In this document: one piece after another, positions 2,024 to 64,000 of the stretch
Position numbering within the stretch: the first letter of the stretch is position 1
Layout: each line of letters opens with the position of its first letter
Source of the DNA: Candidatus Uhrbacteria bacterium
GTDB taxonomy: Bacteria > Patescibacteriota > Patescibacteriia > UBA9934
Reading direction: 5' to 3'
Assembly: GCA_963822405.1 (NCBI GenBank)
Contig: CAWGHH010000001.1
Coordinates: 227,717-291,716, forward strand
Length of the DNA stretch: 64,000 nucleotides
Notes under the pieces: generated by a model
Told to the model about the DNA's origin: nothing
The model's database searches: none
The model's input: only the letters and a program-made list of their open reading frames with translations
Program-made: the position numbers and the translations under genes

Positions 2024-2030
2024 TATTTGT

Positions 2031-13200: not shown

Positions 13201-13208
13201 TGTCTGTC

Positions 13209-25770: not shown

Positions 25771-26490
25771 TTACGTGATATTTGGATGGGGATTGGGATT
25801 ATTCCGGTCACGTTCCCATTTGGCGGGGTTTTCGCGGATGTATTCCTGGATTCGTTTTAAATCACTCTTTCCTCTGATAATATGTTCGTAATAATCCCGT
25901 TGCCATAATTTTCCGATTCTTCCAACCTTTCCGAATCGATGACCTTTGGCGTATTCATTATAAAATGCGTTCGTGGTCATCGTCTTGAACCATTGGACGA
26001 AATCCGGAATTCCTTTAAACGCGCTCGCGTCCTCTCCATAACCGGCCGTCCCGGCCGCCGTTGGGGTCGACCCATGCGTCGACCCTTTCCCATCCTCCGA
26101 ACCGTTTTCGGATTTTAACGTCGACCTCTTTTCATTTCTTACCCGCGAAACGATTTCTATAATCCCGTGAAAATGATTGGGCATGGTTACGAATTCATGG
26201 ATACGAATTCCCGGAAATTTCTCCGGTAATTTATTCCAAAATTTATCCACGATCATTCCGTATTCATTTAATTCCATTATCGAAGGTGGATTTGTGCGAG
26301 GGTCGACGCATGGGTCGACCCCAACCTCGCGGATCACGCCGAACCATTCGATTCGGTCTTCGGTGACGGGATTAATAAAATAATATCCGGGTTGGGAGTA
26401 ATCGTATCCCTTTAAACGTAATTCCTTCCTACCGATTTCTTTCCATGAAAACATAAAACCCCATTTGTTTGGCCGATATGCGTCGGTCAT
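25771..26490 (-). CDS. IS200/IS605 family Y1 (HUH) transposase, RAYT-like
   Basis: HUH motif MPNHFHGIIEI and a C-terminal LWQRDYYEHIIR catalytic Tyr region. An insertion-like Gly/Ser-rich segment is present, and a 23-bp inverted repeat pair lies inside the coding sequence. Confidence 0.7.
   Translation of the reverse strand: MTDAYRPNKWGFMFSWKEIGRKELRLKGYDYSQPGYYFINPVTEDRIEWFGVIREVGVDPCVDPRTNPPSIMELNEYGMIVDKFWNKLPEKFPGIRIHEFVTMPNHFHGIIEIVSRVRNEKRSTLKSENGSEDGKGSTHGSTPTAAGTAGYGEDASAFKGIPDFVQWFKTMTTNAFYNEYAKGHRFGKVGRIGKLWQRDYYEHIIRGKSDLKRIQEYIRENPAKWERDRNNPNPHPNIT
26060..26082 (+). repeat. 23-bp palindromic repeat GGGGTCGACCCATGCGTCGACCC (left copy) inside the transposase gene
   Basis: The exact reverse complement is present at 26300-26322; each copy contains the self-complementary GGGTCGACCC. 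Confidence 0.55.
26300..26322 (+). repeat. 23-bp palindromic repeat (right copy, inverted)
   Basis: GGGTCGACGCATGGGTCGACCCC, the reverse complement of 26060-26082; the pair brackets the HUH core of the transposase ORF. Confidence 0.55.
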
Positions 26491-27693: not shown

Positions 27694-28152
27694 ATGGCCT
27701 GTATTTTTTGTGACATCGTATCGGGGCATGTTCAGTCTTATAAAGTTTGGGAAGATGAAAAGCATCTTGCTTTTTTATCCATTTTTCCTAATACAGTGGG
27801 TGCTACTGTGGTTATACCAAAGAGCCATCACCCGAGTTATGCTTTTGATCTCCAAGATGATGTTTTATGTGATCTAGTGAAGGCTACAAAGCAGGTTGCC
27901 CAGCTTCTTGATAAAAGTTTCGAAGATGTTGGTCGTACGGGCATGGTGTTTGAAGGATTTGGTGTGGACCACGTACACGCGAAACTATTCCCGATGCATG
28001 GCACGAAGATTGCTTCATGGAAAGCTATTCATTCGACGCTGCGTACATTCTATGCAACGTATCCAGGGTATATCGCTTCACACGACGGCGATCGGATGAG
28101 TGACGAGCTCCTTGCGGATACTGCAAAAAAGATAACCGACCTCAATAAATAA
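27694..28152 (+). CDS. HIT family (histidine triad) hydrolase
   Basis: CIFCDIVSG N-terminus and histidine triad VDHVHAKLFP. Confidence 0.8.
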   Translation: MACIFCDIVSGHVQSYKVWEDEKHLAFLSIFPNTVGATVVIPKSHHPSYAFDLQDDVLCDLVKATKQVAQLLDKSFEDVGRTGMVFEGFGVDHVHAKLFPMHGTKIASWKAIHSTLRTFYATYPGYIASHDGDRMSDELLADTAKKITDLNK

Positions 28153-28154
28153 AA

Positions 28155-28192
28155 GGACGGGCCGCACCACTAGGGTACGGCCCGTTTTGTTA
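28155..28192. terminator. bidirectional hairpin terminator between convergent HIT and aaRS genes
   Basis: ACGGGCCG-13 nt-CGGCCCGT followed by TTTTGTT; the complement gives a T-rich run on the other strand. Confidence 0.5.
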
Positions 28193-29506
28193 CGGAGTAA
28201 GCCGATTCACACCTCGGTAAAGGTAGGTCACCTCGCGCACGTTGCCGAGTCCGGTGAGGAGCATTAGCATGCGCGTGAGGCCAAAGCCGAAGCCACCGTG
28301 TGGAGGCATTCCGTACCGGAAGAAGTCGAGATAGAACTGAATGCTTGAGGGGTCCAATCCTTTTTCTATCGCCTGCTCTCGCAGGATGTCGTAGCGATGT
28401 TCGCGCTGTGCACCGCTCGTCACCTCCAAGCCGTTCCAGAGCAGGTCGAAGCTCTTGGTTAGGCTCGGATCGTGGGTGTGTCGCATGTGGTAGAAGGGTC
28501 GGACGCCAATTGGCCAGTCTGTCACGAACACGAACTCGTGTCCATGCTGTTCTTTTACCCATTTGCAGATTAGTTTTTCGCCTTCCGGATCGAGATCGCC
28601 ACCCGCTTCGGGTGGAATCACGTGCCCGAGCCCTTCCAGGATTTCGTAGGCCTTGGCCATGGTGATCCTGGGGAACGGAACTGCGGGTACCACGACTTCT
28701 TTGCCGTAGATCTTTCTGATTTTTTCCCCATGTATTTCAGCCACACGGGCGATAGTATGTGCAATCCACCGTTCTTCGATCGACATGACGTCTTCGTGGG
28801 AATCGACCCAGGCCACTTCGACGTCAACGGAAGTGAATTCCGTATCGTGTCGGATAGTGTGCGATTTGTTCGCGCGGAACACGGGTCCGATCTCGAACAC
28901 GCGGTCGAAACCTGCCGCGATTCCCATCTGCTTGTAGAACTGTGGCGATTGCGCAAGGTACGCAGTACCGCCGAAGTACGGCAGGGAGAACAGTTCGGCT
29001 CCGGATTCGCTGCCGTGGCCCATGAGCTTCGGCGAGTGGATCTCGAGGAAGCCATTCATGGTCCACCATTCGCGCATGGCGTGCTCGGCCGTCGTTTGGA
29101 TCTCGAAGACCAGACGGTTTGCTGGGTTCCGCAGATCCAGAAAGCGCCAGTTCAGGCGATCCTGGAGCTGGGGGTTGATTCCGAGCGGGAGCGGCTTTTC
29201 GGCCGGTCCGACCACCGTGATTTGCTCGGGGATGATCTCCACCCCACCGAGTTTCACCTGGGGGTTGGCTACGAGCCGGCCAGTGATGTCCACGGCGGCC
29301 TCAGGTACCAGCTGGCTCAAGATGGTGGCGAGCTCACTGCCGGCTTCCGGCTTGAAGTACGTCACCTGTACCCAACCGGTATGATCACGCACGACCAGGA
29401 AGGTCATGCGTTTTTTGTCGCGCAGGTGTTCCACCCACCCGCACACCCGTACGATCTGTTCTCCACCGACAAGGGAAAGAGTCCCGATGAGATTCCGCTG
29501 TAACAT
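28190..29506 (-). CDS. class IIb aminoacyl-tRNA synthetase, archaeal/eukaryal-type AspRS/AsnRS-like (aspartate--tRNA ligase likely)
   Basis: N-terminal OB anticodon-binding fold (VRVCGWVEHLRDKKRMTFLVVRD), motif 2 FRANKSHTIRHDTEFTSVDVE, motif 3 GGFGFGLTRMLM. Start set at ATG 29504-29506; the longer ORF-track N-extension is Ser/Cys-rich and unlikely. Confidence 0.7.
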   Translation of the reverse strand: MLQRNLIGTLSLVGGEQIVRVCGWVEHLRDKKRMTFLVVRDHTGWVQVTYFKPEAGSELATILSQLVPEAAVDITGRLVANPQVKLGGVEIIPEQITVVGPAEKPLPLGINPQLQDRLNWRFLDLRNPANRLVFEIQTTAEHAMREWWTMNGFLEIHSPKLMGHGSESGAELFSLPYFGGTAYLAQSPQFYKQMGIAAGFDRVFEIGPVFRANKSHTIRHDTEFTSVDVEVAWVDSHEDVMSIEERWIAHTIARVAEIHGEKIRKIYGKEVVVPAVPFPRITMAKAYEILEGLGHVIPPEAGGDLDPEGEKLICKWVKEQHGHEFVFVTDWPIGVRPFYHMRHTHDPSLTKSFDLLWNGLEVTSGAQREHRYDILREQAIEKGLDPSSIQFYLDFFRYGMPPHGGFGFGLTRMLMLLTGLGNVREVTYLYRGVNRLTP

Positions 29507-29531
29507 TGTGCCTCCTAGAGTTGTACTGATG

Positions 29532-30851
29532 CTACGGATAGACCGAGCGTCGGAAGGTACGAGGGAAGGGGATTGCATCCCGCACATGGTTGATGTTGAG
29601 GAGCCATCGCATGAGGCGTTCGACCCCCATGCCGAAGGCAATATGAGGCACGGGTCCGAATCCGCGCAGGTCTCGAATCCACTCGTACCGGGCGTCGCCC
29701 AGTTTCCCTTTTTCCGCCATTCGTTCGTCAAGCATCGGAAGTCCTACGATCTTTTCAGCTACACCGAGCAGCTCACCATATCCACGTGGAGCAATCAGGT
29801 CAGCAGTTCGCGTTACCTCCGGGTCGTCCGGATCGATAACGTACGGAAAGGGTTCCACCACGCGTGGAATGCCCATGATCCAGAAGGGACCGGTGTAGTT
29901 CTTTGAGAGGATGTCTTCCTCGGCAGAGCTGAGCCCTTTACCAAAGGAGATATCACAGCCCTTAGCCTGCAACTGGCTGATCGCATCGCGATAACGCAGG
30001 CGCGGGAAGGGTCCGTTCAGGCCCTCGGTGGAGTAGGAAGTACCGAGTACTTTGGTCGTCTCTTCTCCACATTCGCGACAGGCATGAGTGAGGCCCGCAA
30101 TGATGTTTTCCACGAGGGCGATAATGTCCTCGAGATCGCCGAACGTGGCTTCTGCCTTGATGTGCCAGTATTCCATGAGGTGCCGCTTGCTCCGGCTTTC
30201 CTCCCCGCGAAAACTGGGACCGATGTTGTAGACTCGCTCGAGCGCATGTGCCGCGCTCTCGAGGTAGTAACCCACGCACTGCGTGAGCAAAACCTTCTCG
30301 CCATTGATTTCGAGTCCGAGCGCGCTATTATCTTCGTAAAGTGGCACCGGCGTCAGGATAGGCGCAGTGATCTCTACGAAGCGATGATCGCGGAACCAGC
30401 GTCGTGCTTCCCAGAGAAGGGAGTCGCGAAACCGCATGATCGCAGCGATTTTCGGATGGCGAAGGTATAGGTGGCGATGCGCGAGCAGGTGATCGCTCAG
30501 ATTAGGATCGAACACGTCGAAGTCCTCCCTGAGCTGTGGCGAGATCTGTTTTGTGGCAGCTGAGATGATGGATAGTGAATCGGCCTTCACTTCCAGGTCC
30601 CGCGTATGTGGGTTCTCTTGTAAGTGACCATCGACTCGTACCGAGCTCTCAACTAGAGCGCGTTTTGCGGCCTCGAAGTCAGCTTCTGGCACTATCGATT
30701 TGTCCATTATGACCTGGATTTTGCCGGTGCTATCCGACACGTCCAGAAAGATTGCTTGTCCATGTCTCCGGCGTGCGGTGAGCCAGCCAAGAAGCGTGAC
30801 AGGCGTCCCGACACCGAGATATTTAAGGTCCTTGACGTAAATACTTTTCAC
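29532..30851 (-). CDS. class IIb aminoacyl-tRNA synthetase paralog (asparagine--tRNA ligase likely)
   Basis: OB fold VTLLGWLTARRRHGQAIFLDV, motif 2 FRGEESRSKRHLMEYWHIKAE, and a C-terminal GMGVERLMRWLL...IPFPR typical of AsnRS/archaeal AspRS. Confidence 0.7.
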   Translation of the reverse strand: MKSIYVKDLKYLGVGTPVTLLGWLTARRRHGQAIFLDVSDSTGKIQVIMDKSIVPEADFEAAKRALVESSVRVDGHLQENPHTRDLEVKADSLSIISAATKQISPQLREDFDVFDPNLSDHLLAHRHLYLRHPKIAAIMRFRDSLLWEARRWFRDHRFVEITAPILTPVPLYEDNSALGLEINGEKVLLTQCVGYYLESAAHALERVYNIGPSFRGEESRSKRHLMEYWHIKAEATFGDLEDIIALVENIIAGLTHACRECGEETTKVLGTSYSTEGLNGPFPRLRYRDAISQLQAKGCDISFGKGLSSAEEDILSKNYTGPFWIMGIPRVVEPFPYVIDPDDPEVTRTADLIAPRGYGELLGVAEKIVGLPMLDERMAEKGKLGDARYEWIRDLRGFGPVPHIAFGMGVERLMRWLLNINHVRDAIPFPRTFRRSVYP

Positions 30852-30959
30852 AACGCACCACCAAGCTTGATTGGTTCATCCAATGCTCCCCTGTGAAGCA
30901 TTCGGACCCTTGATCTTGGCTAAAATGAGAGATTCTGTCAAGCTATCGGAGGAGGTCTC

Positions 30960-31987
30960 ATGGTTCCCATCGATATTCGTGCTTATATGGCGTATACGTT
31001 GGCTTTTACTCCCGAGGAGAATACGCTCCGTGCTGAACTGATGGACTGGCTGCCGGTCGAGATCGTTGATAGTCATGCACACAGCAATATGCCTGAGCAT
31101 GTGTCTTCGGTCGATTCCCGGGCGTACGCCCACATGCTTTCGACGTTCCCCTTTTCTCTTTGGAGGATTCGAAGGCTATGCATCAGCGATTTTTTCCGGG
31201 AAAGAAGGTTCGTGCCTTGCGCTTCTCTCATGTGTTTCGTGGCATTGATCATCGGATCGTGAATTCGTATCTAATTGCCGAAAGTGCATCGACAGATCGC
31301 GTCGCCCTGTACGGGCTGCCGGACGACGAAGAGTATACGGTGGAGGAGTTGCGGACTGGCAGGTACTCGGCTCTTAAAATGTACTACTTGTATCTTGAGC
31401 CTCCGGGTACGGAGATCTATCAGTATTTTCCACCCCGAATCCTCAGGGAGGCAGAGCGTCTAGGAGTGCCGATCATTCTTCATCTGCCGAGGCGCATCAC
31501 GCAGTGTCTGCCGGATCTTCTTCGTCTGATCTCAGACTTCCCTCGTCTCACAGTGGTGCTCGCGCATCTGGGTCTTACCAAGATGCCCGTTCCTGGCCTC
31601 GCGGAGGCGTATGCATCTGTAGCCGTGCACGACAATATCTTCATGGATACAGCAATGGTGCCGAGTGCCGAAGTCGTAAAGATGGCACTCGCCGCTTTTG
31701 GGAGTAAGCGCATCCTTTTTGGTTCTGACGAACCTGTGAGTATGGTTCGTGCAGTTGTGTATGCCCATCCAGATTTGGGTCAGCGCCTGATCACAGAATA
31801 CCCATATCACTGGGTAAATCCAGAAGAGCATCGGAGTTTCAGGCATTTGGCTAAAGGAGCAATGCACGGTCTGTGGCCTGCACTGCGAGCCATCAAAGAA
31901 GCAGTCGAATCATTGGATGAGGAAGAGCGGTCTAAAGCTAGACAACGCATCTTTCACAACAACGCGGTCAAAGTGTTTGGCTTCTAA
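30960..31987 (+). pseudogene. amidohydrolase-2 family metal-dependent hydrolase, reading frame broken near 31150-31200
   Basis: The N-terminal IVDSHAH metal-binding motif is in frame 0 (30960-31262). The TIM-barrel remainder (PIILHLPRR...VLAHLG...LFGSDEP) is in frame 2 (31160-31987), and a T6 run lies at 31190-31195. Confidence 0.5.
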
Positions 31988-33985: not shown

Positions 33986-34026
33986 GCAGGCTATTGTCAT
34001 GGTCGAATTGAGGATTTGAAATAGTT

Positions 34027-34042
34027 GTCGGTGGTCACCGAC
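34027..34042 (+). promoter_or_regulatory. palindromic site GTCGGTG-gt-CACCGAC (copy 2)
   Basis: Perfect 7-bp arms around a GT centre; direct repeat of 33972-33985. Confidence 0.3.
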
Positions 34043-34419
34043 ATGTATTGGTTCTGCGCTCGTTGAGCGTATTTTTGTTTCAAGGCTTAATGGCTTTAGA
34101 ACGTTCTACGCCAGCCGGCCAGCTGGCAACACGCCTGGCATAGCCGGGCAAGCAACTGAACATCTAATGCGTCCTAACTGAACAAAAGGGAAGGACACCT
34201 TGGAGAGCAGAAGCGATTATGACTTGTAGATGACTGCCGGGAATGGAGCTTTAACTGGGGAGTTTGGCTCTATTCCCGTTCTCGATAGGAGGAAATACCG
34301 ACCTCTATCTCCTCTCTCTCCTCGTGTCGGCATTGGATTCTTCTCTCCGAACGTTAGTTCGTACTCCCATATCGTTCGGGGTGGAATAATCTTCCCCAAT
34401 TACTTGTTTGGAGGATCTC

Positions 34420-36174
34420 ATGGATCGTCAGTATCGTCCGGTGTTCTTCCTGGTCAGTGTATTCCTTCAGGGTTGTGGCCCTCAGTATGCGCTCGACCAA
34501 GCGTTGGACGAGCAGAACGGAACGGCCGAAAACAATGGAGAAGGCGGTGGTACGGATGTGATCGTGGCTAATATGCCCTTTGCGAAGGGCTATGGCAGCC
34601 GGTGTGTGCAGGGCGCGAATGGCTCCTACTCGCATCAGTACACGAGCACGAAGTACGACCTCGACTTCGATACGCCGAACGACACGAAGGACCTCATCTA
34701 CGCGCCTATGAGCGGAACCGCGTATGTCCACGATGACGGAACGCACGGCTTCGGCCGGCACGTGAACCTGGATCTGCACGACGGCACGTACCTCATCATG
34801 GGGCACATGTCTGACGTGTTCATTCAAAACGGGACTGACGTGGCTGCGGGACAGATCCTGGGGTTTGAAGGAACCACGGGAAACTCGACCGGCGATCACG
34901 TGCACTTTGGACGGCATTCGGGCGACGCCAAGAAGGCGGGTAGCTACGGCGCCAGTTTGTCTGGGCTGAAGGTCAGAATGTTCGACGTGAACACGAACGT
35001 GGACGCGGACGTCATGACAAGTGACGCGACGTGCTCGCTCTCCGGCGGCCATCTGTATAAGTCGGAACTGCCGACTGCGCACTGGCATCCGGTGGGTACG
35101 TTCCTCAAGCGTCCGGGCGATTCGCTCGTGTTCGAGCGGGTGACGGGAAACGGCGTGCTCGCCTACATGAACGAGAACGCGTTTCTCTCCCGGGGTTACA
35201 GCTTTACGGACGTGGCCCTCATGTCCGATGAGGAGCTGGCCTGTTACTCCAGGGCGGTGACCGTTTCCAGCGCGGGTTACGTGCGGGCGCTACGGGATTC
35301 CAGTGGCGACGCCTGGATTCTCATTGGCCAGACGAACGACTCTGGGCGAAAGCGTCTTCGGGTGGACGAGACTGGCGTGGTGGGGATTCTGCAGAGCTAC
35401 GGTATCAGGGCGAGTTCGTATGACGACATCGATCACGGCGCTGACTCGGAAATCAGTTCGTACCCGAGCGCGGGGCGGGCGAGTTACCGGGACGGAACGC
35501 TGGTCTCCCAAGAAGGGAAGAGCGACGTGTACATCATGAACGCTGGCGTGGCCATGCCCATTCGGGACTGGAATACGCTACTCCTCATGGGGTTCAGCGG
35601 TCGGGACATTATTCGGGTGACCGGCGACGAGCTCCTGACGAACGTCACGTCAAAGGGCAACTGCAGTACGGACACGTATTGCATCACGAAAGAAGATATT
35701 ACCGAGTGCGCTCACACAGAGGAGGTTGACGATGCGAACGAATTCGAAACGGATTCAGGAACTGGTGCGCAGGGGAATGATGATTCGGGAGGGAACCAAG
35801 ATTCGGCAGTGGCAGATCAAGCGTTTACGCTTCAGTGGGTCACGCCGAATCGGCTGCTGGCTGATTGGATCACGGTAGCTGGTACCTGGACCCCGGCGTC
35901 CGGGGAAACCATCGGCTGGGATCCTATGCTGGCCGGCGTGCACAACGCGAACTCCGTCATCTACAGCAAACACAGCGTGAGTCACGGCGACAAATTCCGT
36001 TTCTCCATGGCCTACGGCTTGGGGAGCGCAGAATCCTGGTCATGCTTGGCACCTTTTCCGCCGGGCATCACTCGGGGCTCGCTCGTGACCGAAGTGGACG
36101 GTGTCTCCGTTTCCGTGCACACCGTGGCGGATCCAAATTCCGCCGGGTGTCAGCTTGAACTCGTCATTCCGTAG
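34420..36174 (+). CDS. M23 family metallopeptidase lipoprotein with long C-terminal extension
   Basis: Lipobox FLQGC. LytM-type catalytic motifs: HDGTHGFGRH.N.D (HxxxD; last D inferred from the translation) and GDHVHFG (HxH). An ~350-aa C-terminal domain of unknown function follows. Confidence 0.7.
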   Translation: MDRQYRPVFFLVSVFLQGCGPQYALDQALDEQNGTAENNGEGGGTDVIVANMPFAKGYGSRCVQGANGSYSHQYTSTKYDLDFDTPNDTKDLIYAPMSGTAYVHDDGTHGFGRHVNLDLHDGTYLIMGHMSDVFIQNGTDVAAGQILGFEGTTGNSTGDHVHFGRHSGDAKKAGSYGASLSGLKVRMFDVNTNVDADVMTSDATCSLSGGHLYKSELPTAHWHPVGTFLKRPGDSLVFERVTGNGVLAYMNENAFLSRGYSFTDVALMSDEELACYSRAVTVSSAGYVRALRDSSGDAWILIGQTNDSGRKRLRVDETGVVGILQSYGIRASSYDDIDHGADSEISSYPSAGRASYRDGTLVSQEGKSDVYIMNAGVAMPIRDWNTLLLMGFSGRDIIRVTGDELLTNVTSKGNCSTDTYCITKEDITECAHTEEVDDANEFETDSGTGAQGNDDSGGNQDSAVADQAFTLQWVTPNRLLADWITVAGTWTPASGETIGWDPMLAGVHNANSVIYSKHSVSHGDKFRFSMAYGLGSAESWSCLAPFPPGITRGSLVTEVDGVSVSVHTVADPNSAGCQLELVIP

Positions 36175-39212: not shown

Positions 39213-40859
39213 ATGGCTATTGCTGACCTGCTCAAAATTCCACCGGTCCGTTCCTTTCTGTTGGGAGGCAAGAGCCTTGCTGAATTTAGGGTTGTCGCTA
39301 AAAACAATGATTTACCAGTTGAGCGCGCAGTTGAATTCCTTGATTTGTGTAATGCAGTAATTGATGGGGCGTTGCCAATGGCGGAGGTGCCGGGGATTAT
39401 TGCGCAGGCGTTTGGGAAGGATGAGGAGACGGCTAAAAAGATTTCGGCGGATATTTTTGGGTATCGAATTTTGCCACTTGAACCGTTTATTCCTGGGATT
39501 GGTGCGCAGATCACGGCTTGGGGCGGAAAATTGGAAGACTATCCAGCTAGACCGATTAGCAAAGAGCAAATTACCGCCTTTTCATGGGCGCAGAGGATGA
39601 ATGAGCTTGCTAATCTTGGATTTTCAGATGTGCTTGTGAAGCGTTTAGCCTTACTTCTTGATGGTCGAATTAGAGGCGAGAAAAATGCTGAAGCACTAAG
39701 AACATTTTTCGGTAGGCCGTTGACTATTGGTGGTTTAGCTTTATTGAAGGAAAAAGTTGAAGCTTTGTTGGCAGAAGTAGAGCGTGAGGCACCGTATATT
39801 GAAACAGTATCTGAAGAAGAATGGCAGAAGATAGAAATTGCAAAGGCTGAGGCGGAGGCTGCGGAAGAGGTGGAGGAATCGGCGGAGGGGTTTGGCGACG
39901 CCAAACCCGTACAACAGGAGGTGGCATTGTCGCAGGCTATAGAAATCGCCCCGCCAAAAGAATTAGCAGCAGAGGTGCCGTCAACGGTTGGTTTTGTGCC
40001 GGATAATTTAAAAGAAGTTGTTGATGAAGCTATAGATGCAGTAAAAGAAATACTTTTAGCAGAGAATATTTCTTTGGATAAATTCCGGTCACTAGCTCAG
40101 ATGAATATTAGAGGTGTTCGCGAACCAGGCCAGACGCGGGATATTCTTGAGAAAGAATACAAGTTAGCTGGCGCTGATTTGCGTGTAGTGTTGGATGCGC
40201 TAGCCGCCGGCAAGAAGAGATTTGATTTGGCGAAGGGGTTTGGCGGCGCCAAACCCGTACATAGCGAGGTGCCCGAAGGGCATAATCAGAATGAGTCCAA
40301 GGAATCGAGTGCCCTCGACCAAAAATTTGCGCAACTCACTAAGACCTTGCCGGAAGAATCCATTGAACCAATCATGCCGGGGTCAAGAGTATCGGCGGCG
40401 CGGGACACTCAATCACCCTCGACCAAGAAAATCATTCCTCTTAAGCCTAGGCCAGCCAAGGCTGAGTTAACTGTTGGTAGCGTTGCTCCAGGGGCTGTTG
40501 ATCGAAAGATGACTGACATAGTTCAGGCCTCGCGTTTAATGGGGCCAGTTGATCAGATTCAGAGCTTGTCGACAACTGAGTTTAGGCGCATGTCCAGTGA
40601 TCCCGCTGAGGCTGCGCGGAAAGTGGAAGATTTAATTATTGCGCTGTTAGCTACTGGCTATGAAGAGCGAGTGAGCGGTATTAATGCTTGGCGTAAGAGT
40701 CCTTTGAACCAGATGTATCTAGAGATTTCTGAAGAAGCACTAGGTGCCGGCATGACCATTCCGGATATTTGCAGCAAGCGCCGTAAAGAAAAAAGAGACT
40801 GTTTGAGCCCGGCGGAAATTAAAGCGATTATTGGACTTAATGCCAAGCTGAGATTTTAA
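39213..40859 (+). CDS. hypothetical acidic soluble protein (T4SS-cluster associated)
   Basis: 548 aa, no TM helices. Contains an internal ~44-bp direct repeat, each copy holding the GGGTTTGGCGnCGCCAAACCC palindrome (encoding GFGDAKPV and GFGGAKPV). Confidence 0.4.
   Translation: MAIADLLKIPPVRSFLLGGKSLAEFRVVAKNNDLPVERAVEFLDLCNAVIDGALPMAEVPGIIAQAFGKDEETAKKISADIFGYRILPLEPFIPGIGAQITAWGGKLEDYPARPISKEQITAFSWAQRMNELANLGFSDVLVKRLALLLDGRIRGEKNAEALRTFFGRPLTIGGLALLKEKVEALLAEVEREAPYIETVSEEEWQKIEIAKAEAEAAEEVEESAEGFGDAKPVQQEVALSQAIEIAPPKELAAEVPSTVGFVPDNLKEVVDEAIDAVKEILLAENISLDKFRSLAQMNIRGVREPGQTRDILEKEYKLAGADLRVVLDALAAGKKRFDLAKGFGGAKPVHSEVPEGHNQNESKESSALDQKFAQLTKTLPEESIEPIMPGSRVSAARDTQSPSTKKIIPLKPRPAKAELTVGSVAPGAVDRKMTDIVQASRLMGPVDQIQSLSTTEFRRMSSDPAEAARKVEDLIIALLATGYEERVSGINAWRKSPLNQMYLEISEEALGAGMTIPDICSKRRKEKRDCLSPAEIKAIIGLNAKLRF
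39888..39908 (+). repeat. palindrome GGGTTTGGCGaCGCCAAACCC (in frame inside CDS)
   Basis: Perfect 10-bp arms; the same core is found at 25729-25749 and 40236-40256. Confidence 0.5.
40236..40256 (+). repeat. palindrome GGGTTTGGCGgCGCCAAACCC (in frame inside CDS)
   Basis: Second intragenic copy, 348 bp downstream of the first. Confidence 0.5.
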
Positions 40860-40882: not shown

Positions 40883-41323
40883 ATGCCGCGGAATCAATTT
40901 GTCGTTCCTCAGTTTCTTGATATCGAGCCGAGAATCATCGGTCCGATTACGGCTAGACAATTTATTATCATGTTAGTGGTAGTGTTAGTTGATTTTGCTG
41001 TTTATAGAATTTTCGCCAATAACATTCCCGTACTTCTCTTGCTCGCACTGCCAATTACTGGTCTTGGTGGAATCTTTGCCTTTGGAAAAGTTAATGGACA
41101 GCCGTTTCATGTTATTTTCTTGAACGTTATTCAAACAATTCGTCGACCCGGAAAACGCGTGTGGGATAAGACAATTTCTGACGCTGAGTTAAAAGTGCTG
41201 ATGTCGCTTGAAACGCTTCCGCCACCTGTTGTTAAGACGCGCAAAGGGCCGCTTGAAGGGTCCAGACTGTCAGAGTTGACCCTGATTGTGAATACTGGCG
41301 GCGTTTACGGTGGGGACGAATAA
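40883..41323 (+). CDS. PrgI/VirB3-like small membrane protein
   Basis: 146 aa with two TM helices (FIIMLVVVLVDFAVYRIF; VLLLLALPITGLGGIFAF); positioned directly upstream of the VirB4-like ATPase, as in Gram-positive-type T4SS loci. Confidence 0.4.
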   Translation: MPRNQFVVPQFLDIEPRIIGPITARQFIIMLVVVLVDFAVYRIFANNIPVLLLLALPITGLGGIFAFGKVNGQPFHVIFLNVIQTIRRPGKRVWDKTISDAELKVLMSLETLPPPVVKTRKGPLEGSRLSELTLIVNTGGVYGGDE

Positions 41324-41334
41324 TAAAACGGTTT

Positions 41335-42030
41335 ATGGCTATCCCAAAAAATAAACTCGCTAAGCCTAAAGTTGGACCTCCGACTCAAAGATTTCTTGAT
41401 ATTGCGGAAATTCGGGAAGATACAGTGGTGATGAAGGATGGAACCTTGAGAGCAGTGTTATTAGTGTCGAGCATTAACTTTGCCCTGAAAAGTGAAGACG
41501 AACAGCAGGCAACTATCCAAGGCTACATGCAATTTTTGAACGGTCTTGAGCATCCTATTCAGATTTCCATTCAATCTCGTAAGATGAATGTTGATGCGTA
41601 CATGCAGAAGATGAAGACCCAGGAGGAGACTATTAGCAATGAATTATTGAAGGGGCAAATTCGTGACTACATGTCATTTGTGTCAGAGCTGGTTGAGCTT
41701 GGCGAGATTATGCAGAAGCGCTTTTTCTGCATTATTCCGTATGATCCAATTGAGGCCGGACAGAAAAGCGGGTTTGTTCAGAGATTAACTGCGGCTATCT
41801 CGCCAGCAGCCATGTTGAAACTAAACGCTAAGCAGTTCCGAGACCGTCGGGATGTGCTTGTTCAGCGTGTAGGAAACATTGCTGGCGGTTTGCAGAGCAT
41901 GGGTTTGCAGGTAGTCCAGCTTGATACGCAGGGACTGATTGAACTTTATTACAATTCCTATAATCCAGGAGCGGCGGATGAGCAAAAGCTCGCCCCGATT
42001 GAAAAGCTCCAGGTTGAGACTCGCTTTTAA
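41335..42030 (+). CDS. hypothetical protein, T4SS-associated (VirB4 N-terminal-like motif)
   Basis: FLDIAEIREDTVVMKDGTLRAVLLVSSINFALKSEDEQ resembles the N-terminal motif of VirB4/TrbE proteins. It is a separate ORF; frame 0 of the next gene has a TGA at 42015-42017 upstream of its ATG. Confidence 0.4.
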   Translation: MAIPKNKLAKPKVGPPTQRFLDIAEIREDTVVMKDGTLRAVLLVSSINFALKSEDEQQATIQGYMQFLNGLEHPIQISIQSRKMNVDAYMQKMKTQEETISNELLKGQIRDYMSFVSELVELGEIMQKRFFCIIPYDPIEAGQKSGFVQRLTAAISPAAMLKLNAKQFRDRRDVLVQRVGNIAGGLQSMGLQVVQLDTQGLIELYYNSYNPGAADEQKLAPIEKLQVETRF

Positions 42031-42032
42031 GT

Positions 42033-43952
42033 ATGGCTTTTAACGTCGAAGACCTAAAAAAACAGCCTACTAGCGTGGCCACTAAAGCCCGCAAGCTTTC
42101 CGTTCAAGAAATGAAGGCTACAGAAGAGCGAGCGACCCTTGAGGAGGAACGGTCTTTTAGGCGAGGCACGGTTAGCGTTCGTGATCTAATTGCGCCAGCG
42201 TCTTTTGAGGTGCAGTCAACATATTTGGTAGTTGGTGATCGGTTTTGCCGGACACTATTTGTGACCACTTATCCACGTTACGTTGGTATTGGTTGGGGCG
42301 CGCCGATCATTAACTTCAAGGGAACAATTGATATTGGCATGTTCGTGTACCCAGTGAAGAGTGAGGTAATTTTGAAGCAACTACGTGACAAAGTTGGTCA
42401 GATTGAGTCGCAGATTGTATCTGATAATGAAACGGGGAAGCCACGTGATCCTATTCAAGAAACTGCGCTGCGTGATGTTGAGCAACTTCGAGATGACCTA
42501 ACGCAGGGAATCGAGCACTTCTTTCAGTTCGCTTTTTACGTGACCATGTATTCAGATAGCAAAGAGAACTTGGATAAGCGAACAGAAGAAATCGAAGCAA
42601 TATTTGGCGGAAAACTTATTTATTCAAAGCGTGGTTTGTATCAGGCCGAGCAGGGATTCAATTCGACATTGCCGTTGTGTAATGATGAGCTAATGGTTCC
42701 GTTTAACATGAATACGAGCCCGATTGCCTCGTCATTCCCATTTATCTCGTCTGATGTATCTAGCGACAATGGAATTCTTTATGGCATTAACCGCCACAAT
42801 AACTCGTTGATTTTGTTTGATCGTTTTTCGTTGCAGAATGCAAATTCGATCGTGTTTGCTACTTCCGGTGCGGGTAAAAGCTACTGTGTGAAGCTCGAAA
42901 TTTTACGCTCGATGATGATGGGCACGGACGTCATTGTTATTGATCCAGAAATGGAATATCGCCAGCTATCAGATGCTGTTGGCGGTACTTATGTGAACGT
43001 TTCGCTTTCTTCCCAAGCTCGCATAAACCCATTTGATCTTCCAAGGCCAAAAGGCGAAGAAACTTCTGTTGAAGATATTTTGCGTAGTGCGGTTATTACG
43101 CTCAAGGGGCTTCTGCGTATCATGATTGGTAAGCCAATGGGGGAGAAGGCGGTGCTTGGTTTTACGCCGGAAGAAGATTCGTTGCTTGACCGGGCCTTGC
43201 TTGAAACTTACGCCAAGAAAGATATTACGGCTGATTTGCCAAGCATGCTCGGTATCACTGAGTACCCAACGCTGAGTGACTTGGTCGAAATCTTAGAGGG
43301 CATGGAAGGCGGAGAGAACCTGGTAGCGAGATTAACAAAGTTTACTTCGGGGACTTTTGCCGGACTGCTGAACTCGCCAACTACGGTTGAGATGAGAAAT
43401 CAGCTAGTTATTTTCTCAGTGCGTGACCTTGAGGATGAGCTGCGTCCAATGGCTATTTATACCATTGTTAACTATATCTGGAACGTGGTTCGCTCGGAGC
43501 GGAAGAAGCGCATTTTGACTATTGATGAAGCGTGGTGGTTGATGCAAAATGAGGACTCGGCTAAATTTATCTTTGCCCTGGTCAAGCGTGCGCGCAAATA
43601 TTATCTAGGCGTGACGACTATTACGCAGGACGTTAATGACTTTTTGCGCAGCCAGTATGGTCAAGCGATTGTGACTAACTCGTCCATGCAGATTTTGCTT
43701 AAGCAATCACCGGCGGGCGTAGACACAATTTGCAATACTTTTAACTTAACCCAAAGTGAAAAGTATTTGTTGCTTGAGGCTGCTATTGGCGAGGGCATCT
43801 TCTTTGCCGGTCAGAAACACGCGGCTATTAAGATCGTTGCCTCTTATACAGAAGACCAGATTATTACGACTAATCCAGAGCAGTTACTGAAGATTGAGCG
43901 CGCCCGGGAAGAATTGCAAAAGTCATTGCAGAATGACGCCGATAAGAAATAA
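42033..43952 (+). CDS. VirB4/TraC/PrgJ-like type IV secretion ATPase
   Basis: Walker A FATSGAGKSYCV, Walker B ILTIDEAWWLM, and the conserved YPRYV...GWGAPII region. Confidence 0.75.
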   Translation: MAFNVEDLKKQPTSVATKARKLSVQEMKATEERATLEEERSFRRGTVSVRDLIAPASFEVQSTYLVVGDRFCRTLFVTTYPRYVGIGWGAPIINFKGTIDIGMFVYPVKSEVILKQLRDKVGQIESQIVSDNETGKPRDPIQETALRDVEQLRDDLTQGIEHFFQFAFYVTMYSDSKENLDKRTEEIEAIFGGKLIYSKRGLYQAEQGFNSTLPLCNDELMVPFNMNTSPIASSFPFISSDVSSDNGILYGINRHNNSLILFDRFSLQNANSIVFATSGAGKSYCVKLEILRSMMMGTDVIVIDPEMEYRQLSDAVGGTYVNVSLSSQARINPFDLPRPKGEETSVEDILRSAVITLKGLLRIMIGKPMGEKAVLGFTPEEDSLLDRALLETYAKKDITADLPSMLGITEYPTLSDLVEILEGMEGGENLVARLTKFTSGTFAGLLNSPTTVEMRNQLVIFSVRDLEDELRPMAIYTIVNYIWNVVRSERKKRILTIDEAWWLMQNEDSAKFIFALVKRARKYYLGVTTITQDVNDFLRSQYGQAIVTNSSMQILLKQSPAGVDTICNTFNLTQSEKYLLLEAAIGEGIFFAGQKHAAIKIVASYTEDQIITTNPEQLLKIERAREELQKSLQNDADKK

Positions 43953-43955
43953 TTT

Positions 43956-44519
43956 ATGACCAGAAAAAGTGAAATCGGTTTAGCTGTTGGAGTTTTAGTC
44001 TTATTGATTATTGTTGTTATTGCATTCATGCTTCGTCAGCCGGTAAAGTCTGCCATCGTGAGCGACGCAAGCGTCGTGCCAATCACCACTTCGAATGGTA
44101 CGCAGCTTCCCCCTCCCGGGGGGATAGAGGGGGTCGTTCCCGCGCCCGTTGCCAATCCTCAAACCGCTACCATGATTTTCGTTGAACGGTTTTCGAGCTA
44201 TTCGTCAGAATCTAATTTTGCGAATGTGAAAGATGTGTTGTCACTTGTGACAGCTAGCTTATCTACTAAGATCCAGGCTGTAGCCACTGAACAACGTGCG
44301 AAGGGAATAGATCAAGCCTATTACGGGATATCGACTAAAGTTATTTCACAGAACGTGCAGGAACAGACGGACACAGTCGCTACTATCATAGTTAGCACCC
44401 AACGAGCTGAGTCGATCGGCAGTCCAAGTAACGCCACTGTTCGTTATCAAGATGTTACAGTTAAGCTCATAAAAGAAGGCGAAGCATGGAAAGTGGACGA
44501 TTTCACCTGGGCAATTTAG
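43956..44519 (+). CDS. membrane-anchored hypothetical protein (end of T4SS-like cluster)
   Basis: N-terminal TM anchor LAVGVLVLLIIVVIAFML. Carries a GC-rich palindromic insert encoding PPPGGIEGVVPAP. Confidence 0.4.
   Translation: MTRKSEIGLAVGVLVLLIIVVIAFMLRQPVKSAIVSDASVVPITTSNGTQLPPPGGIEGVVPAPVANPQTATMIFVERFSSYSSESNFANVKDVLSLVTASLSTKIQAVATEQRAKGIDQAYYGISTKVISQNVQEQTDTVATIIVSTQRAESIGSPSNATVRYQDVTVKLIKEGEAWKVDDFTWAI
44107..44135 (+). repeat. GC-rich palindromic element TTCCCCCTCCCGGGGGGATAGAGGGGGTC (in frame)
   Basis: CCCCCTC/GAGGGGG inverted termini; same family as 44998-45056 and (reverse complement) 63293-63322. Confidence 0.5.
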
Positions 44520-45175
44520 TCGAGCCGTTCTTAAACGCAATTTTTCCGCGTTATTGTGTTTCGTGTAAACAGGAAGGATCTTTACTCTGTTCTTCTTGTT
44601 TTGCAGATTTTGATGATCGAGTATTTAAGGTCGAGGACAGCCATTTAACAATGTTCGCCTACGGCAACCCGATTATTCGTGATCTGATCAAGGCGTATAA
44701 ATATGACTTTGATCATTCGGCCTTTAGAATCTTGCAGCGTCTGGCCGAGCCGGAGATGCAAATTTTGAAGTCTTTTATTGGTGAAGGAATTCTGACACCC
44801 ATCCCACTGGCTTCATTGCGATTCCGAGAGAGGGGATTTAACCAGGCCGAAGAAATTGGTTGATGGCTCGCGAAATCAACTGGTGCGGAGATCTCTGATC
44901 TTCTAAAAAGGGAAGAAACAAGAGGCCACCAGGCTGAGCGTACCGTGGAAGAACGCGAAACGGCCATGGAACGGAGTCCGTTCAATATGGTTGCAACTTC
45001 CCCCTCCCAGGGGCTCGCCCGTAGGGCGGTCTACGCCCGAGGGGATAGAGGGGGTCTCAGTGTGGTTCTCATCGACGACGTCTGGACCACCGGTTCAACC
45101 ATGAAGGCGGCCGAAAGAACCTTGAAAAACAGCGGAATTGAGAATGTGAAATATATAACTTTAGCCAAAGGTTAG
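44486..45175 (+). pseudogene. comFC: ComFC-like phosphoribosyltransferase (competence protein F family) interrupted by an in-frame TGA at 44861-44863
   Basis: N-terminal Cys4 zinc finger (CVSCKQEGSLLCSSC), RERGFNQAEEIG motif, and a PRTase motif VVLIDDVWTTGSTM downstream. Both parts are in the same frame, separated only by TGA (EEIG*WLAKSTG). Confidence 0.55.
44998..45056 (+). repeat. GC-rich palindromic element, long variant (TTCCCCCTCCC-31 bp-GGGGATAGAGGGGGTC), in frame in the comFC-like gene
   Basis: Shares both termini with 44107-44135 but carries an extra internal 31-bp segment with its own imperfect palindrome (CTCGCCCGTAGGGCGGTCTACGCCCGAG). Confidence 0.5.
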
Positions 45176-45202
45176 TTGTTCGTTTGGGGATGGCACCCTT
45201 GC

Positions 45203-45235: not shown

Positions 45236-45676
45236 ATGCCAGATGAAAGAGTAGAGTCAGTCATCGGAGAAATGCAATATGAAGGATTCCGGATCTCTCC
45301 TCTTCGACGAGAAATTATTGATATTTTCCTTCGATATAAACCTCCACAATCGGCCGATGAATTACAGGTTATACTTAATAAACGAAAAGTTCTATTTCAC
45401 AGGGCTTCTCTATATAGGGAGTTAGAATTCTTGATTAATTGGAAATTCTTGGAAAAGGTTTTGTTCGGTGATGGTGTTACAAGATACGAAACATCCTGGC
45501 ATAAGCATCATCATCACTTGGTTTGTACTAATTGTTCGTCTTCAGTTGATGTCGAGTTTCCAGAGTCTCCTCTTGAGAAAGTTGCTGAAGTTGCGGCAGA
45601 CAAATATTCCTTCTCTATTAAAAGTCACACTCTTGAATTTTTCGGCCTATGTCAAAAATGCCAGTCTTCGCGATAA
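45236..45676 (+). CDS. zur: Fur family transcriptional regulator (Zur-like)
   Basis: Winged-helix N-terminus, HHHHLVCTNC metal site, and C-terminal CxxC (CQKC). Confidence 0.8.
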   Translation: MPDERVESVIGEMQYEGFRISPLRREIIDIFLRYKPPQSADELQVILNKRKVLFHRASLYRELEFLINWKFLEKVLFGDGVTRYETSWHKHHHHLVCTNCSSSVDVEFPESPLEKVAEVAADKYSFSIKSHTLEFFGLCQKCQSSR

Positions 45677-60691: not shown

Positions 60692-61702
60692 TTAAGAAGT
60701 TTTATTTCTAGCAGATGCTGCGTCCATATGTTCTCGCCACTGATTGACTACGTCCTCAATGTCTTCTTTGCGAACTGCAGGATGTTTGGTCTGTTTAGCG
60801 GCGCCGTGGACAAGGCCAAGATGCTTGCCGTGACTTTTATCTTCAAACTCGATGGAAACTTTGGCGGCGGCTTCGTCGATCAAATCAATTGCTTTGTCTG
60901 GAAGGAATCGACCGCGGATATATTTATCTGACAGTCGAACCGCCTCTTTCAGCACGTCGTCTGGAATAGTTACTTTGTGAAACGCTTCGTATTCTGGTCG
61001 TAGAGTTTTGAGCATTCTCACTGCCTGTTCCGGCTCAGGTTCGTCGACGAGTACTGGTTGGAATCGTCTATCAAGCGCGGCATCTTTCTTGATGTACTTA
61101 GCGTATTCATCCCAAGTAGTCGCGCCAATGATGTGAAGGTCGCCACGTGCAAGGGCTGGCTTGAACAAGTCGGTTACATTGAGCGAGCCTTCGCTTCCGC
61201 TCCCTTGAACAATCATGTGTACTTCGTCAATAAACAAAATAGTCTCGCGGGAATCGCCCTCGAGGTCTTTTAGAAAGTCGCTAACCCGTTTTTCGAGCTC
61301 ACCACGGAATTTAGTCTCGCCAAAAAGGGAGGCGAGGTTAATTGCGATCAAAGATTTGCCCTTGAGCGAATCTGGAACATTACCTTTCGCCATTCTGTCT
61401 GCCAGGCCATGTACAATAGCGGTTTTTCCTACTCCAGGCTCGCCAATTAACAGGGGATTATTCTTGCTGCGACGCAATAGAATGTGAATCGTCCGTTCGA
61501 TTTCTCCTTCGCGATCAGAAAACGGATCAAGCTTACCCTTCTTGGCGAGTTCGATCAGATCCGTCGAAAATGCACTCGGTTTAGTCGAGGATTTCTTACT
61601 GCCAGTGTTCGAACTTCCCGTTTTCCCTTGATACAAAATAATCGCACCAACAATACCGCAAATAATTGCTATACCCCACAAGACATTCGGATCCATAGGC
61701 AA
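60692..61702 (-). CDS. membrane-anchored AAA+ ATPase, ClpA/ClpB D1-domain-like (single domain)
   Basis: N-terminal TM helix (LWGIAIICGIVGAIILY), then LDPFSDREGEIERTIHILLRRSKNNPLLIGEPGVGKTAIVHGLA, ILFIDEVHMIV, sensor/arginine-finger region DAALDRRFQPV, and PDKAIDLIDEAAA. No N-domain, M-domain or D2. Confidence 0.7.
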   Translation of the reverse strand: MPMDPNVLWGIAIICGIVGAIILYQGKTGSSNTGSKKSSTKPSAFSTDLIELAKKGKLDPFSDREGEIERTIHILLRRSKNNPLLIGEPGVGKTAIVHGLADRMAKGNVPDSLKGKSLIAINLASLFGETKFRGELEKRVSDFLKDLEGDSRETILFIDEVHMIVQGSGSEGSLNVTDLFKPALARGDLHIIGATTWDEYAKYIKKDAALDRRFQPVLVDEPEPEQAVRMLKTLRPEYEAFHKVTIPDDVLKEAVRLSDKYIRGRFLPDKAIDLIDEAAAKVSIEFEDKSHGKHLGLVHGAAKQTKHPAVRKEDIEDVVNQWREHMDAASARNKTS

Positions 61703-61738
61703 AAGTTTGCCTAAGTATACATCGATTTTTTCCCGTCT

Positions 61739-62132
61739 TTGCGAGAGTCCCGTCCGCGGGAGCTCGAAGCAACCTCAAAAGAGCTCACTCGAAATATCAC
61801 GCCAAGTCGGATTTTCAGTCGCAATTAACAGCATTTTCTTGTTTCTCGACCCAGCCTTAATCTGCTTCTCTCTAGAAATCGCATCGTATGCTGTTGAAAA
61901 TACTTCAACATATACGAGTTTTATGCAGTTGTATTCCTTCGTAAATCCTTCGACGAGTTTATCTTTGTGTTCTTGGACTCTTCGAGAGATGTCGTTCGTG
62001 ACGCCTGTGTATAGGACAGAATTATGGGGATTTGTCATGATGTACACGTAGTAACTCCGCTCTTCCATATAAGAAATATCATTGGGGTTGCTTCGACCCA
62101 ACGGATTACCGTTGGTCTCGCAAAGACTGATA
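61739..62132 (+). repeat. structured repeat element, copy 2, with GIY-YIG ORF occupying its central loop
   Basis: Left arm 61739-61774 and right arm 62087-62132 match 13209-13296 (TTGCGAGRG.CCCGTCCGCGGGAGCYCGAAGCAACC ... TTGCTTCGACCCARACGRATTAC...GGTCTCGCAAAGACTGA). Confidence 0.45.
61775..62068 (-). CDS. GIY-YIG nuclease family protein (UPF0213-like)
   Basis: YYVYIMTNPHNSVLYTGVTNDISRRVQEH contains the GIY-YIG motif pair plus the conserved Arg and Glu. Confidence 0.7.
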   Translation of the reverse strand: MEERSYYVYIMTNPHNSVLYTGVTNDISRRVQEHKDKLVEGFTKEYNCIKLVYVEVFSTAYDAISREKQIKAGSRNKKMLLIATENPTWRDISSELF

Positions 62133-62136
62133 GGGG

Positions 62137-63414
62137 CTACTTCGCCAACTCTCTCACATGCTTAACATTCTTCGGTGTAAGCGAAGTTGCCATACCTAGC
62201 CTTTCGGCTTCTTTCAGTCGGCGTTCAAGGAAGGGGACGGAGCGGACTTCGCCGCCCAGGCCAAGTTCGCCGACGATGATTGTATCGGCGGGGAAGGTTT
62301 TGTCGTTGATCGCTGAAATAATTGCGGCAGCGACTGCGAGATCGGCGGCGTGTTCGTCGATTTTGATTCCGCCGACTACGTTTACGAAGACGTCCTGGTC
62401 GTAGACCTTGAGGCCGGCGCGTTTGGACACGATCGCGAGCACCATTTGTAACCTCGACGCGTCATAACCGGATGTGCGACGAACTGGATTTGGGAAGAAT
62501 GACTTGTCGACGAGTGCTTGAATTTCGACGAGGAACGGTCGCGATCCTTCCATGATGCAGGTGACGACAGAGCCAGGACCTGGCACGCGCTCTTTTAAGA
62601 ATCGAGCCGACGGGTTCTCGACCGCAATTAATCCCTTCTCTGTCATCTCGAAAACGCCGATTTCTTCGGTGCTACCAAAACGGTGCTTGTTCGCACGAAG
62701 AATTCTGTACGTCGAGTCTGGGTCGCCTTCAAGGGTAAGAAGGGTGTCGACCAGGTGCTCGAGCGTCTTTGGCCCCGCAATAGTTCCTTCTTTAGTCACT
62801 TGGCCAATAATTAAAACCGGCGTGTTTGTAGATTTTGCGAAGCTGATCAGCTCGGTTGTCGCCGCTCGCACCGCAGTTGGCGTTCCTGGAAATGCGTCAG
62901 CTTCTGCCACCATCATGGTCTGAATAGAATCGACGATTACGATGCTCGGTTTTGCTTCTCTCGCGGCCGCAATAATTGCGCCAACATCGACTGCATTCGA
63001 AAACAGGATCGTGCCCGGGTTAATTCCGAGGCGTTCAAAGCGTAGGCGAACCTGGCCTTCGGATTCTTCGCCAGATGCGTAATAGGCCGTTTGAAAACCC
63101 GCAATCTGGGCCACGATGGTCGACTTGCCGATTCCCGGTTCACCAGCGAGGAGCGTTACAGATCCTGGCACGATTCCTCCGCCAAGGACTCGATCGAGCT
63201 CGGAAAGCCCAGTTGGGATGGGGGAGGTGACGGTGGCGGTGGCTTCGCCTAATTTCAAAACAGGCGCAGGTTTTGCGTGGCTGGTGCCTTTTGACCCCCC
63301 TAGCCCCCCCGGGAGGGGGGAACCATCCTCGGCTAATGTTCCCCATTTTCCACACTCCGTGCATCGCCCAGACCATTTTAGAACCTGGGTATCGCAGTGA
63401 GAACAGCTGTACAT
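62137..63414 (-). CDS. radA: DNA repair protein RadA/Sms
   Basis: N-terminal C4 zinc finger (CSHCDTQ...CTECGKW), Walker A GEPGIGKST, KNRFG motif (RANKHRFG), and a Lon-protease-like C-domain. Carries a GC-rich palindromic insert after the zinc finger. Confidence 0.9.
   Translation of the reverse strand: MYSCSHCDTQVLKWSGRCTECGKWGTLAEDGSPLPGGLGGSKGTSHAKPAPVLKLGEATATVTSPIPTGLSELDRVLGGGIVPGSVTLLAGEPGIGKSTIVAQIAGFQTAYYASGEESEGQVRLRFERLGINPGTILFSNAVDVGAIIAAAREAKPSIVIVDSIQTMMVAEADAFPGTPTAVRAATTELISFAKSTNTPVLIIGQVTKEGTIAGPKTLEHLVDTLLTLEGDPDSTYRILRANKHRFGSTEEIGVFEMTEKGLIAVENPSARFLKERVPGPGSVVTCIMEGSRPFLVEIQALVDKSFFPNPVRRTSGYDASRLQMVLAIVSKRAGLKVYDQDVFVNVVGGIKIDEHAADLAVAAAIISAINDKTFPADTIIVGELGLGGEVRSVPFLERRLKEAERLGMATSLTPKNVKHVRELAK
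63293..63322 (-). repeat. GC-rich palindromic element in radA (reverse complement TTCCCCCCTCCCGGGGGGGCTAGGGGGGTC)
   Basis: Same family as 44107-44135, in gene-sense orientation; encodes the Pro/Gly-rich loop GSPLPGGLGGSKG. Confidence 0.5.
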
Positions 63415-63415
63415 A

Positions 63416-64000
63416 TTAGTTGCACATTGGAGAGTACTCCTTACTGTCAGCTGAGTCATCCTTCATGCAACAGTAGTCTTTGAAGTCGTATTCAAAGCAG
63501 CCGGCGGGATTATGACCAGAAACAATTGGTGTGCTGTTGGCTGTTGTACATGACCGTTTGCTAAGCTGTTTGCCATCAAGCTCGTAATGCCATGCTTCGC
63601 TGGTCAATCTGCAAAAACCATTGGCTGTCATGATTTGATTCATTGTGGTCATGTCTTTCACGTTGGCAATGAAATCACCCGGGCTACCTTCGGGGAAAAT
63701 ATCAACGGCTACATTTGAGGTATGAGGACAGTTTCTAGCTTGTCCGTTGGAAGTTAGAATGTTCGTTCCTGTGGCCGGATCAGTTACTCCGAGTAGCATT
63801 CCAGTTGCGGTAAAAGTTCTATTGGCATACGAAACTACGGTTGATCTGCCGTATGTACTTCCTGTTGGATCGCAGGTAGACGGTTTATGCGGTGAGCCAG
63901 GTGCCATGAAGCGCTCAAAGAATAATCTAGCTTGAACGCTAACGTCTCTGCTGGCGGAAGTAACTTGAATATTTTTTCCTGTTTGGGCGAAATATATACC
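63416..64000 (-). CDS. peptidase M15 (VanY/D-Ala-D-Ala carboxypeptidase-like) family protein, partial (N-terminus beyond window end)
   Basis: CPHTSNVAVDIF (HxxxxxxD) and LTSEAWHYEL (ExxH) zinc-binding motifs; the frame stays open to position 64000. Confidence 0.5.
   Translation of the reverse strand, partial: GIYFAQTGKNIQVTSASRDVSVQARLFFERFMAPGSPHKPSTCDPTGSTYGRSTVVSYANRTFTATGMLLGVTDPATGTNILTSNGQARNCPHTSNVAVDIFPEGSPGDFIANVKDMTTMNQIMTANGFCRLTSEAWHYELDGKQLSKRSCTTANSTPIVSGHNPAGCFEYDFKDYCCMKDDSADSKEYSPMCN

Follow-up and report, generated by a model that had tools for sequence, protein, structure and literature searches.

An in-frame TGA in comFC of an Uhrbacteria-related Patescibacterium is probably a nonsense allele under the standard genetic code

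In this study, we asked what is to be made of a TGA codon that stands in the middle of a comFC gene: whether it is a sense codon of an altered genetic code, a stop that is read through, a boundary between two cooperating polypeptides, an error in the consensus or an ordinary nonsense mutation. The gene lies in a stretch of 64,000 nucleotides (the whole of which is referred to here as the window), and by its sequence the host is a Patescibacterium of the Uhrbacteria neighbourhood. Translation of 44486-45178 (+) in a single frame gives ...RGFNQAEEIG, a stop, WLAKSTGAEISDLL...VVLIDDVWTTGSTMKAAERTLKNSGIENVKYITLAKG and the terminal stop. The complete ComF-family frame thus occupies 44486-45175 on the plus strand (229 codons counting TGA), overlaps the upstream gene by 34 nt at its 5' end and closes with its true stop, TAG, at 45173-45175. 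The interruption is codon 126, the TGA at 44861-44863 (+), which was placed by the frame translation and by the codons of relatives; the flanking sequence reads RGFNQAEEIG-stop-WLAKSTG. As the original prediction had stated, both parts share one frame and nothing but this TGA separates them, the frame being otherwise intact. In the list of open reading frames (ORFs) the N-terminal ORF has 125 aa, and the next in-frame start after it is a GTG at 44945. The truncated product (44486-44863, +) is P0008 as annotated publicly, a 125-aa protein that is 100% identical to the N-terminal ORF of the window and is present in NCBI, ENA and Logan.

When the two parts are joined, the comF profile TIGR00201 aligns with residues 24-228 in one stretch over all of its length (profile positions 1-190 of 190), so that the claim of a continuous alignment over the stop holds; the score is 69.5 bits, which is below the curated cut-off of 233.55. 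PF00156 matches the joined protein above its cut-off (30.2 against 26.3 bits), and the zinc-ribbon match is weak (DZR_2, PF18912; E 5e-4). A search of 5.8 billion proteins yielded 1,036 homologs (E<=1e-5). They are single proteins of full length, approximately 210-230 aa, and the best of them come from Patescibacteria MAGs, measure 216-226 aa and share 67-72% identity with the window protein. The closest full-length relative, P0001 (72% identity), is named ComF family protein in its source record. As the joined protein aligns across the stop, its homologs are full length and the exact 125-aa fragment was recovered, the observation is real and a chance juxtaposition of two ORFs is excluded.

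Where the TGA falls in the protein was examined with an alignment of 20 ComFC sequences and an AlphaFold2 model built from it (mean pLDDT 85, pTM 0.81). Upstream of the stop lies a four-cysteine zinc-ribbon motif (C24, C27, C35 and C38; 44555-44599, +), in which all 20 aligned homologs share C35 and C38, and nearly all of them (>=90%) C24 and C27. Downstream of it the PRPP-loop signature DDVWTTGST (45074-45100, +), located by the alignment and PF00156, is intact and conforms to DDxxTTGxT, with VVLIDDVWTTGST found in the sequence; its residues D197, D198, V199, T201, T202, G203 and T205 are invariant in the alignment. The frame that joins these two domains is the one interrupted at codon 126. 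In the PDB, the model is matched best by H. pylori ComF (7p0h_A; 219 aligned columns, E 1.5e-7), and other phosphoribosyltransferases (PRTases) are also among its structural matches; a single-sequence search of the PDB with ComFC was uninformative. In the H. pylori protein (7P0H), too, a 4-Cys zinc finger precedes a type-I PRT fold that contains DDxxTTGxT, whereas the two proteins are only about 21% identical and the window protein differs in its TGA at codon 126 and in a hairpin-encoded loop before the PRPP-loop strand. In the model, residue 126 sits in a helix (residues 120-132, with a 10-residue block at pLDDT 98) that follows a strand (residues 102-105) and a loop corresponding to the PPi loop, and in a profile search the APRT structure 1mzv was aligned from profile position 102 onwards. 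The division into a zinc-finger half and a PRTase half that had been proposed at first does not hold, as the PRT fold begins considerably upstream of the stop; judging from the model, the TGA cuts this fold after its first strand and within a confidently predicted helix.

What remains in the 125-aa product is therefore the 4-Cys zinc ribbon together with the N-terminal strands and only the first PRT strand with the PPi loop, and the flexible loop and the PRPP loop are lost from it. It has been reported that the zinc finger and the PRPP-binding domain of H. pylori ComFC are both essential in vivo (Damke et al. 2022, PMC9005727), and because both domains are needed there, we infer that the truncated product would be inactive. 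In a cultivated Saccharibacterium, transposon sequencing showed no fitness contribution of ComEC, ComF or DprA, while com genes are conserved across the phylum (PMC10633639). Since these genes are dispensable for growth in that organism, a comFC null allele in the phylum seems biologically plausible.

If UGA were a sense codon in this organism, the frame would not be broken at all. Such a reading would require either an altered code, with UGA decoded as glycine or tryptophan as in Gracilibacteria/Absconditabacteria or Mycoplasma, or the insertion of selenocysteine. The host is a member of the Patescibacteria, in some lineages of which code 25 (UGA = Gly) occurs, and the Gracilibacteria and Absconditabacteria that use it belong to the same superphylum and likewise have in-frame UGA in conserved genes. 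Unlike in code 25, however, release factor 2 (RF2) is present in the window: prfB (12094-13200, +) encodes the SPF and GGQ motifs and scores 474.2 bits against TIGR00020 (cut-off 370), and its presence had been anticipated correctly. We note that this prfB is a single uninterrupted ORF, without the RF2-autoregulating +1 frameshift site (CTT TGA C) of many bacteria. A survey of the code was based on 52 non-overlapping ORFs of at least 110 aa, chosen greedily and comprising about 18,800 codons. TAA terminates 28 of them, TAG 16 and TGA eight, one of the latter being the ORF at 3382-3714, which had been named beforehand as an example of termination by TGA. When all six frames of the 64-kb window were split at TAA and TAG only, no confident gene with an internal TGA was found besides ComFC, and a single ORF of 2,963 aa (8.9 kb; 16812-25703) runs without any in-frame stop. 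Two other TGA-joined pairs were rejected as candidates, namely 1487-2491(-), a spurious antisense frame opposite a methyltransferase gene, and 60692-62161(-), which represents two separate genes for a GIY-YIG protein and a Clp-like AAA ATPase. The tRNAs within the window are three in number and all ordinary (Arg-GCG, Ser-TGA and Ser-GCT), and neither tRNA-Sec nor a tRNA(UCA) is among them. Given RF2, the absence of TGA from the other frames and the eight ORFs that end in TGA, UGA is a stop here and the code is the standard bacterial one, as had been suspected from the outset.

The site itself argues in the same direction. Among full-length homologs the column of codon 126 is variable (R, S, K, L, G, E, T, D, H and Q), and it is therefore not a Cys/Sec or Trp position; at this column homologs carry Arg, Ser, Lys or Glu and never Cys. 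In addition, folding of the 91 nt around and after the stop is no more favourable than that of shuffled sequences (z -1.27), and no SECIS-like structure is seen downstream. With one TGA in about 18,800 sense-frame codons, we regard a reassigned UGA or selenocysteine at this site as extremely improbable.

The codon from which the TGA arose could be read in the DNA of the closest relatives, which was fetched and threaded codon by codon onto the protein alignment. The window reads GAA ATT GGT TGA TGG CTC at the site, and the loci L083 and L085 read GAA ATT GGT CGA TGG CTG and GAA ATT GGT CGA TGG CTA, respectively. These are the two nearest relatives that share the local context, and over 17 nt they are the same as the window apart from CGA/TGA. 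Elsewhere in this column L084 has CGG, L082 has TCG, and L002 and L003 have GAG. As the nearest relatives carry CGA in an identical context, the TGA is an arginine CGA altered by one C>T transition at 44861, and of the three codons that had been suggested as the original one (CGA, TGG or GGA) it is thus CGA that was found. A strain of the same species was also sought but not found: in the protein search no match other than the truncated protein was closer than 72% identity, the scan of genome contigs gave at most 55%, and the scan of metagenome contigs at most 35% among the matches listed.

Downstream of the stop, the residues that are invariant in the 20-sequence alignment are all kept in the window protein (R142, Q149, A150, R157, P165, F166, D197, D198, V199, T201, T202, G203, T205, A208, A209, G217 and G229). 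Of the sites that are invariant in the four nearest relatives, 4/86 before the stop and 2/46 after it carry window-specific changes, and both values fall within the range obtained when each relative is treated alike. As there is no extra decay downstream of the stop, the event would be young, and on this comparison the lesion appears to be isolated and young, or not real, or tolerated; the lack of decay would fit a consensus error or a tolerated leaky stop just as well. An internal stop or a split alignment was found in none of the 163 further ComFC loci of Patescibacteria, which came from genomes and metagenomes. What look like stops in L054, L065, L072, L110 and L141 precede the true start and are not genuine.

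UGA is the leakiest stop in bacteria, and it has to be considered whether it is tolerated here, or even programmed for readthrough, with near-cognate decoding (e.g. by tRNA-Trp) yielding some full-length ComFC at a reduced level. The 104 codons downstream that show no decay would fit this, and the variability of the column among homologs suggests that a substituted residue would probably be tolerated. If it were true, for example with Trp at the variable helix position, the gene would be a naturally down-tuned competence allele in a Patescibacterium. However, the stop is conserved in none of the 163 loci of relatives, RF2 is present, and the folding of the 91 nt described above offers no stimulatory structure better than shuffles. 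The tetranucleotide TGAT, moreover, is the same as that at four of the eight genuine TGA terminators of this genome, and from work in E. coli TGA-T is a strong context for UGA termination. Readthrough, one of the three options named in the original prediction, therefore found no support, and we consider it quite improbable.

Another way to retain function would be a split gene, in which termination is followed by re-initiation and the two polypeptides assemble into an active ComFC. The stop does overlap a start codon (TGATG), but this ATG (44863) is out of frame and opens a short ORF only, and the in-frame GTG at 44945 would omit the conserved segment with R142, Q149 and A150 (GHQAER). The break is within a helix of the PRT fold, and the gene is split in 0/163 other loci; a functional split gene is accordingly hardly credible.

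The remaining question is whether the base itself is correct. According to this explanation, the TGA is a consensus or sequencing error, or a minority allele chosen by the assembler, and the organism really has CGA and an intact ComFC. One base substitution would suffice, the source of the window is a MAG from one sample, the gene is otherwise perfect with no decay 3' of the stop, and ComFC is intact in 163/163 other loci. However, a Logan contig (ERR12037365_1908622; L001) equals window positions 41486-45038 at 100% identity with the TGA included, and two assemblies made with different software therefore agree over 3,553 bases, the TGA base among them. The MAG and the Logan assembly probably share the same reads and would then not be independent samples; the match makes an assembler or polishing artefact unlikely, though not a property of the reads. 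A literature search on run ERR12037365 gave no match. The window shows no other sign of a poor consensus, as it contains no other broken gene and at least 50 intact ORFs, among them the one of 8.9 kb, and to our knowledge substitution errors in short-read consensus sequences are rare. We thus consider an error unlikely, and less likely than the nonsense mutation with which it had been listed at first.

Taking these results together, the window very probably carries a real comFC nonsense allele of the sampled population, which, of the readings offered at the start, is also the simplest given the CGA in relatives. The Arg codon CGA at position 126 would have been converted to TGA by one recent C>T transition; translation would then end at this codon through the standard code and RF2, and leave a fragment of 125 residues that comprises the zinc ribbon and, of the PRT fold, no more than the first strand and PPi loop. 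Of this reading, the base, the ancestral codon, the code, the place of the break in the fold and the lack of additional decay are shown by the data, and the loss of function and the reality of the allele in the sampled population are inferred. Ordinary young pseudogenes of bacteria that arose by CGA>TGA likewise show a single C>T at an Arg CGA, intact orthologs and no further lesions, and the present case is odd only in that Patescibacteria otherwise keep the gene without exception. As an intact ComFC was seen at all other Patescibacteria loci that were examined, its loss would be unusual for the group. In annotating the window, table 11 should be used, and comFC should be recorded as a pseudogene or nonsense allele, and not as two genes or as evidence of recoding. 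If the allele is real, the population has probably lost ComFC-dependent DNA uptake. We believe, however, that the short in-frame hairpin insertions in ComFC and neighbouring genes are a more promising lead than the stop.

The GC-rich palindrome that had been described inside ComFC does exist. It is a composite, in-frame structure at 44996-45058 (+; core 45000-45054) with arms CCCCCTCCC / GAGGGGG, and its outer arms enclose a second hairpin of approximately 30 nt. In the model it encodes a surface loop of low confidence (residues 171-190, pLDDT ~55). Compared with dinucleotide-shuffled versions of the GC-rich segment in which it lies, the 59-nt palindrome gains no stability (z 0.44); it is therefore the repetition of the arm sequences, and not the energy, that argues for its reality. 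The outer arms recur as CTTCCCCCTCCC … GGGGATAGAGGGGGTC at 44104-44137 on the coding strand of the neighbouring gene (43956-44519), and the ComFC copy looks like the 25-nt unit of that gene (44109-44133) with a hairpin of about 30 nt nested in its loop. A related copy is found in radA (62137-63459) at 63290-63322 on the minus strand, which is the coding strand, and ksgA (15291-16085) contains the hairpin CCCCCTCCAC-TTC-GTGGAGGGGG at 15866-15888. In all four genes the hairpins lie in frame and in loops or linkers, and on the coding strand their pyrimidine-rich arm comes before the purine-rich one. The Logan contig L001 ends at window position 45038, inside the ComFC palindrome, which would fit a hairpin or repeat breaking the k-mer graph.

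The same ComFC loop carries different perfect hairpins in relatives, again with a pyrimidine-rich and then a purine-rich arm; they have 9-10 bp, 3-nt loops and a consensus of approximately CYCCYCCTT-N3-AAGGRGGRG. The arms CTCCTCCTT and AAGGAGGAG enclose TCC in L082 (3511-3531) and TAT in L085 (3412-3432), and the corresponding hairpins are CCCCCTTCTT-ACG-AAGAAGGGGG in L083 (3488-3510), CCCCTCCTT-CCC-AAGGAGGGG in L166 (3512-3532) and CTCCCCCTT-ACG-AAGGGGGAG in L008 (4479-4499). L009 has CCCCTCCCTTCGAAGGAGGGG, with a stem of 7, and in L002, L003 and the majority of the remaining ComFC genes the loop is short and contains no hairpin. In L083 and L084 the adjacent ABC ATPase gene contains a 30-nt in-frame insertion with CTCCCCCTT-TG[A/C]-AAGGGGGAG (hairpins at 4458-4478 in L083 and 3983-4003 in L084), and this insertion is missing from the window and L082. 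The varied hairpins at one ComFC loop, together with the presence and absence of the insertion in the ABC ATPase, point to a recurrent or mobile in-frame mini-palindrome, and from sequence and model these look like small palindromic insertions that are tolerated in surface loops. Rickettsia palindromic elements (RPEs) and REP/RAYT systems are likewise short palindromes that stand in frame in conserved genes and in surface loops; the hairpins described here are, however, shorter than RPEs (21-59 nt versus 100-150 nt) and, unlike them, have a pyrimidine-rich arm followed by a purine-rich one on the coding strand.

A candidate RAYT-like Y1 transposase gene is present at 25771-26490 (-); it scores 48 bits against NF047646, which is below the cut-off, and encodes HFH and WQRDYYEH. 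This gene holds a perfect 27-nt inverted repeat pair (26060-26086 and 26299-26325) that codes for VDPCVDP and GSTHGSTP. A second hairpin family, GGGTTTGGCGNCGCCAAACCC, occurs just downstream of the RAYT-like gene (25729-25749) and in two copies (39888-39908 and 40236-40256) within the gene at 39213-40859.

With regard to the gene neighbourhood, the window (block 40883-45175), L082-L085 and L166 have in common the order TraC-like gene, VirB4/TraG-like ATPase (639 aa), 186-aa membrane protein and ComFC, and this order is kept in relatives whose ComFC is as little as 41% identical. In the window, the TraC-like gene is preceded by a PrgI-like gene (40883-41323). Between ComFC and the genes for the ABC ATPase, YibE_F and an ABC-3 permease, the window has a Fur-family regulator (45236-45676); L082 and L084 have no Fur-family gene there, and the ABC gene directly follows ComFC.

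Two further features of the window were noted. A GIY-YIG ORF (61775-62101, -) is flanked by the structured repeats D6 and D2 (region 61735-62130), and just downstream of prfB (13206-13296) the same two repeats abut directly, with no ORF between them. The arrangement resembles a small cassette with the GIY-YIG ORF and a MITE-like copy of it that is empty. Finally, the G+C content is raised to 0.53-0.57, compared with about 0.47, in two islands. The first (28000-31000) contains two neighbouring genes for class-II aminoacyl-tRNA synthetases (tRNA-synt_2), both on the minus strand (28190-29731 and 29532-30851), and the second (34000-36000) contains an M23-peptidase protein.
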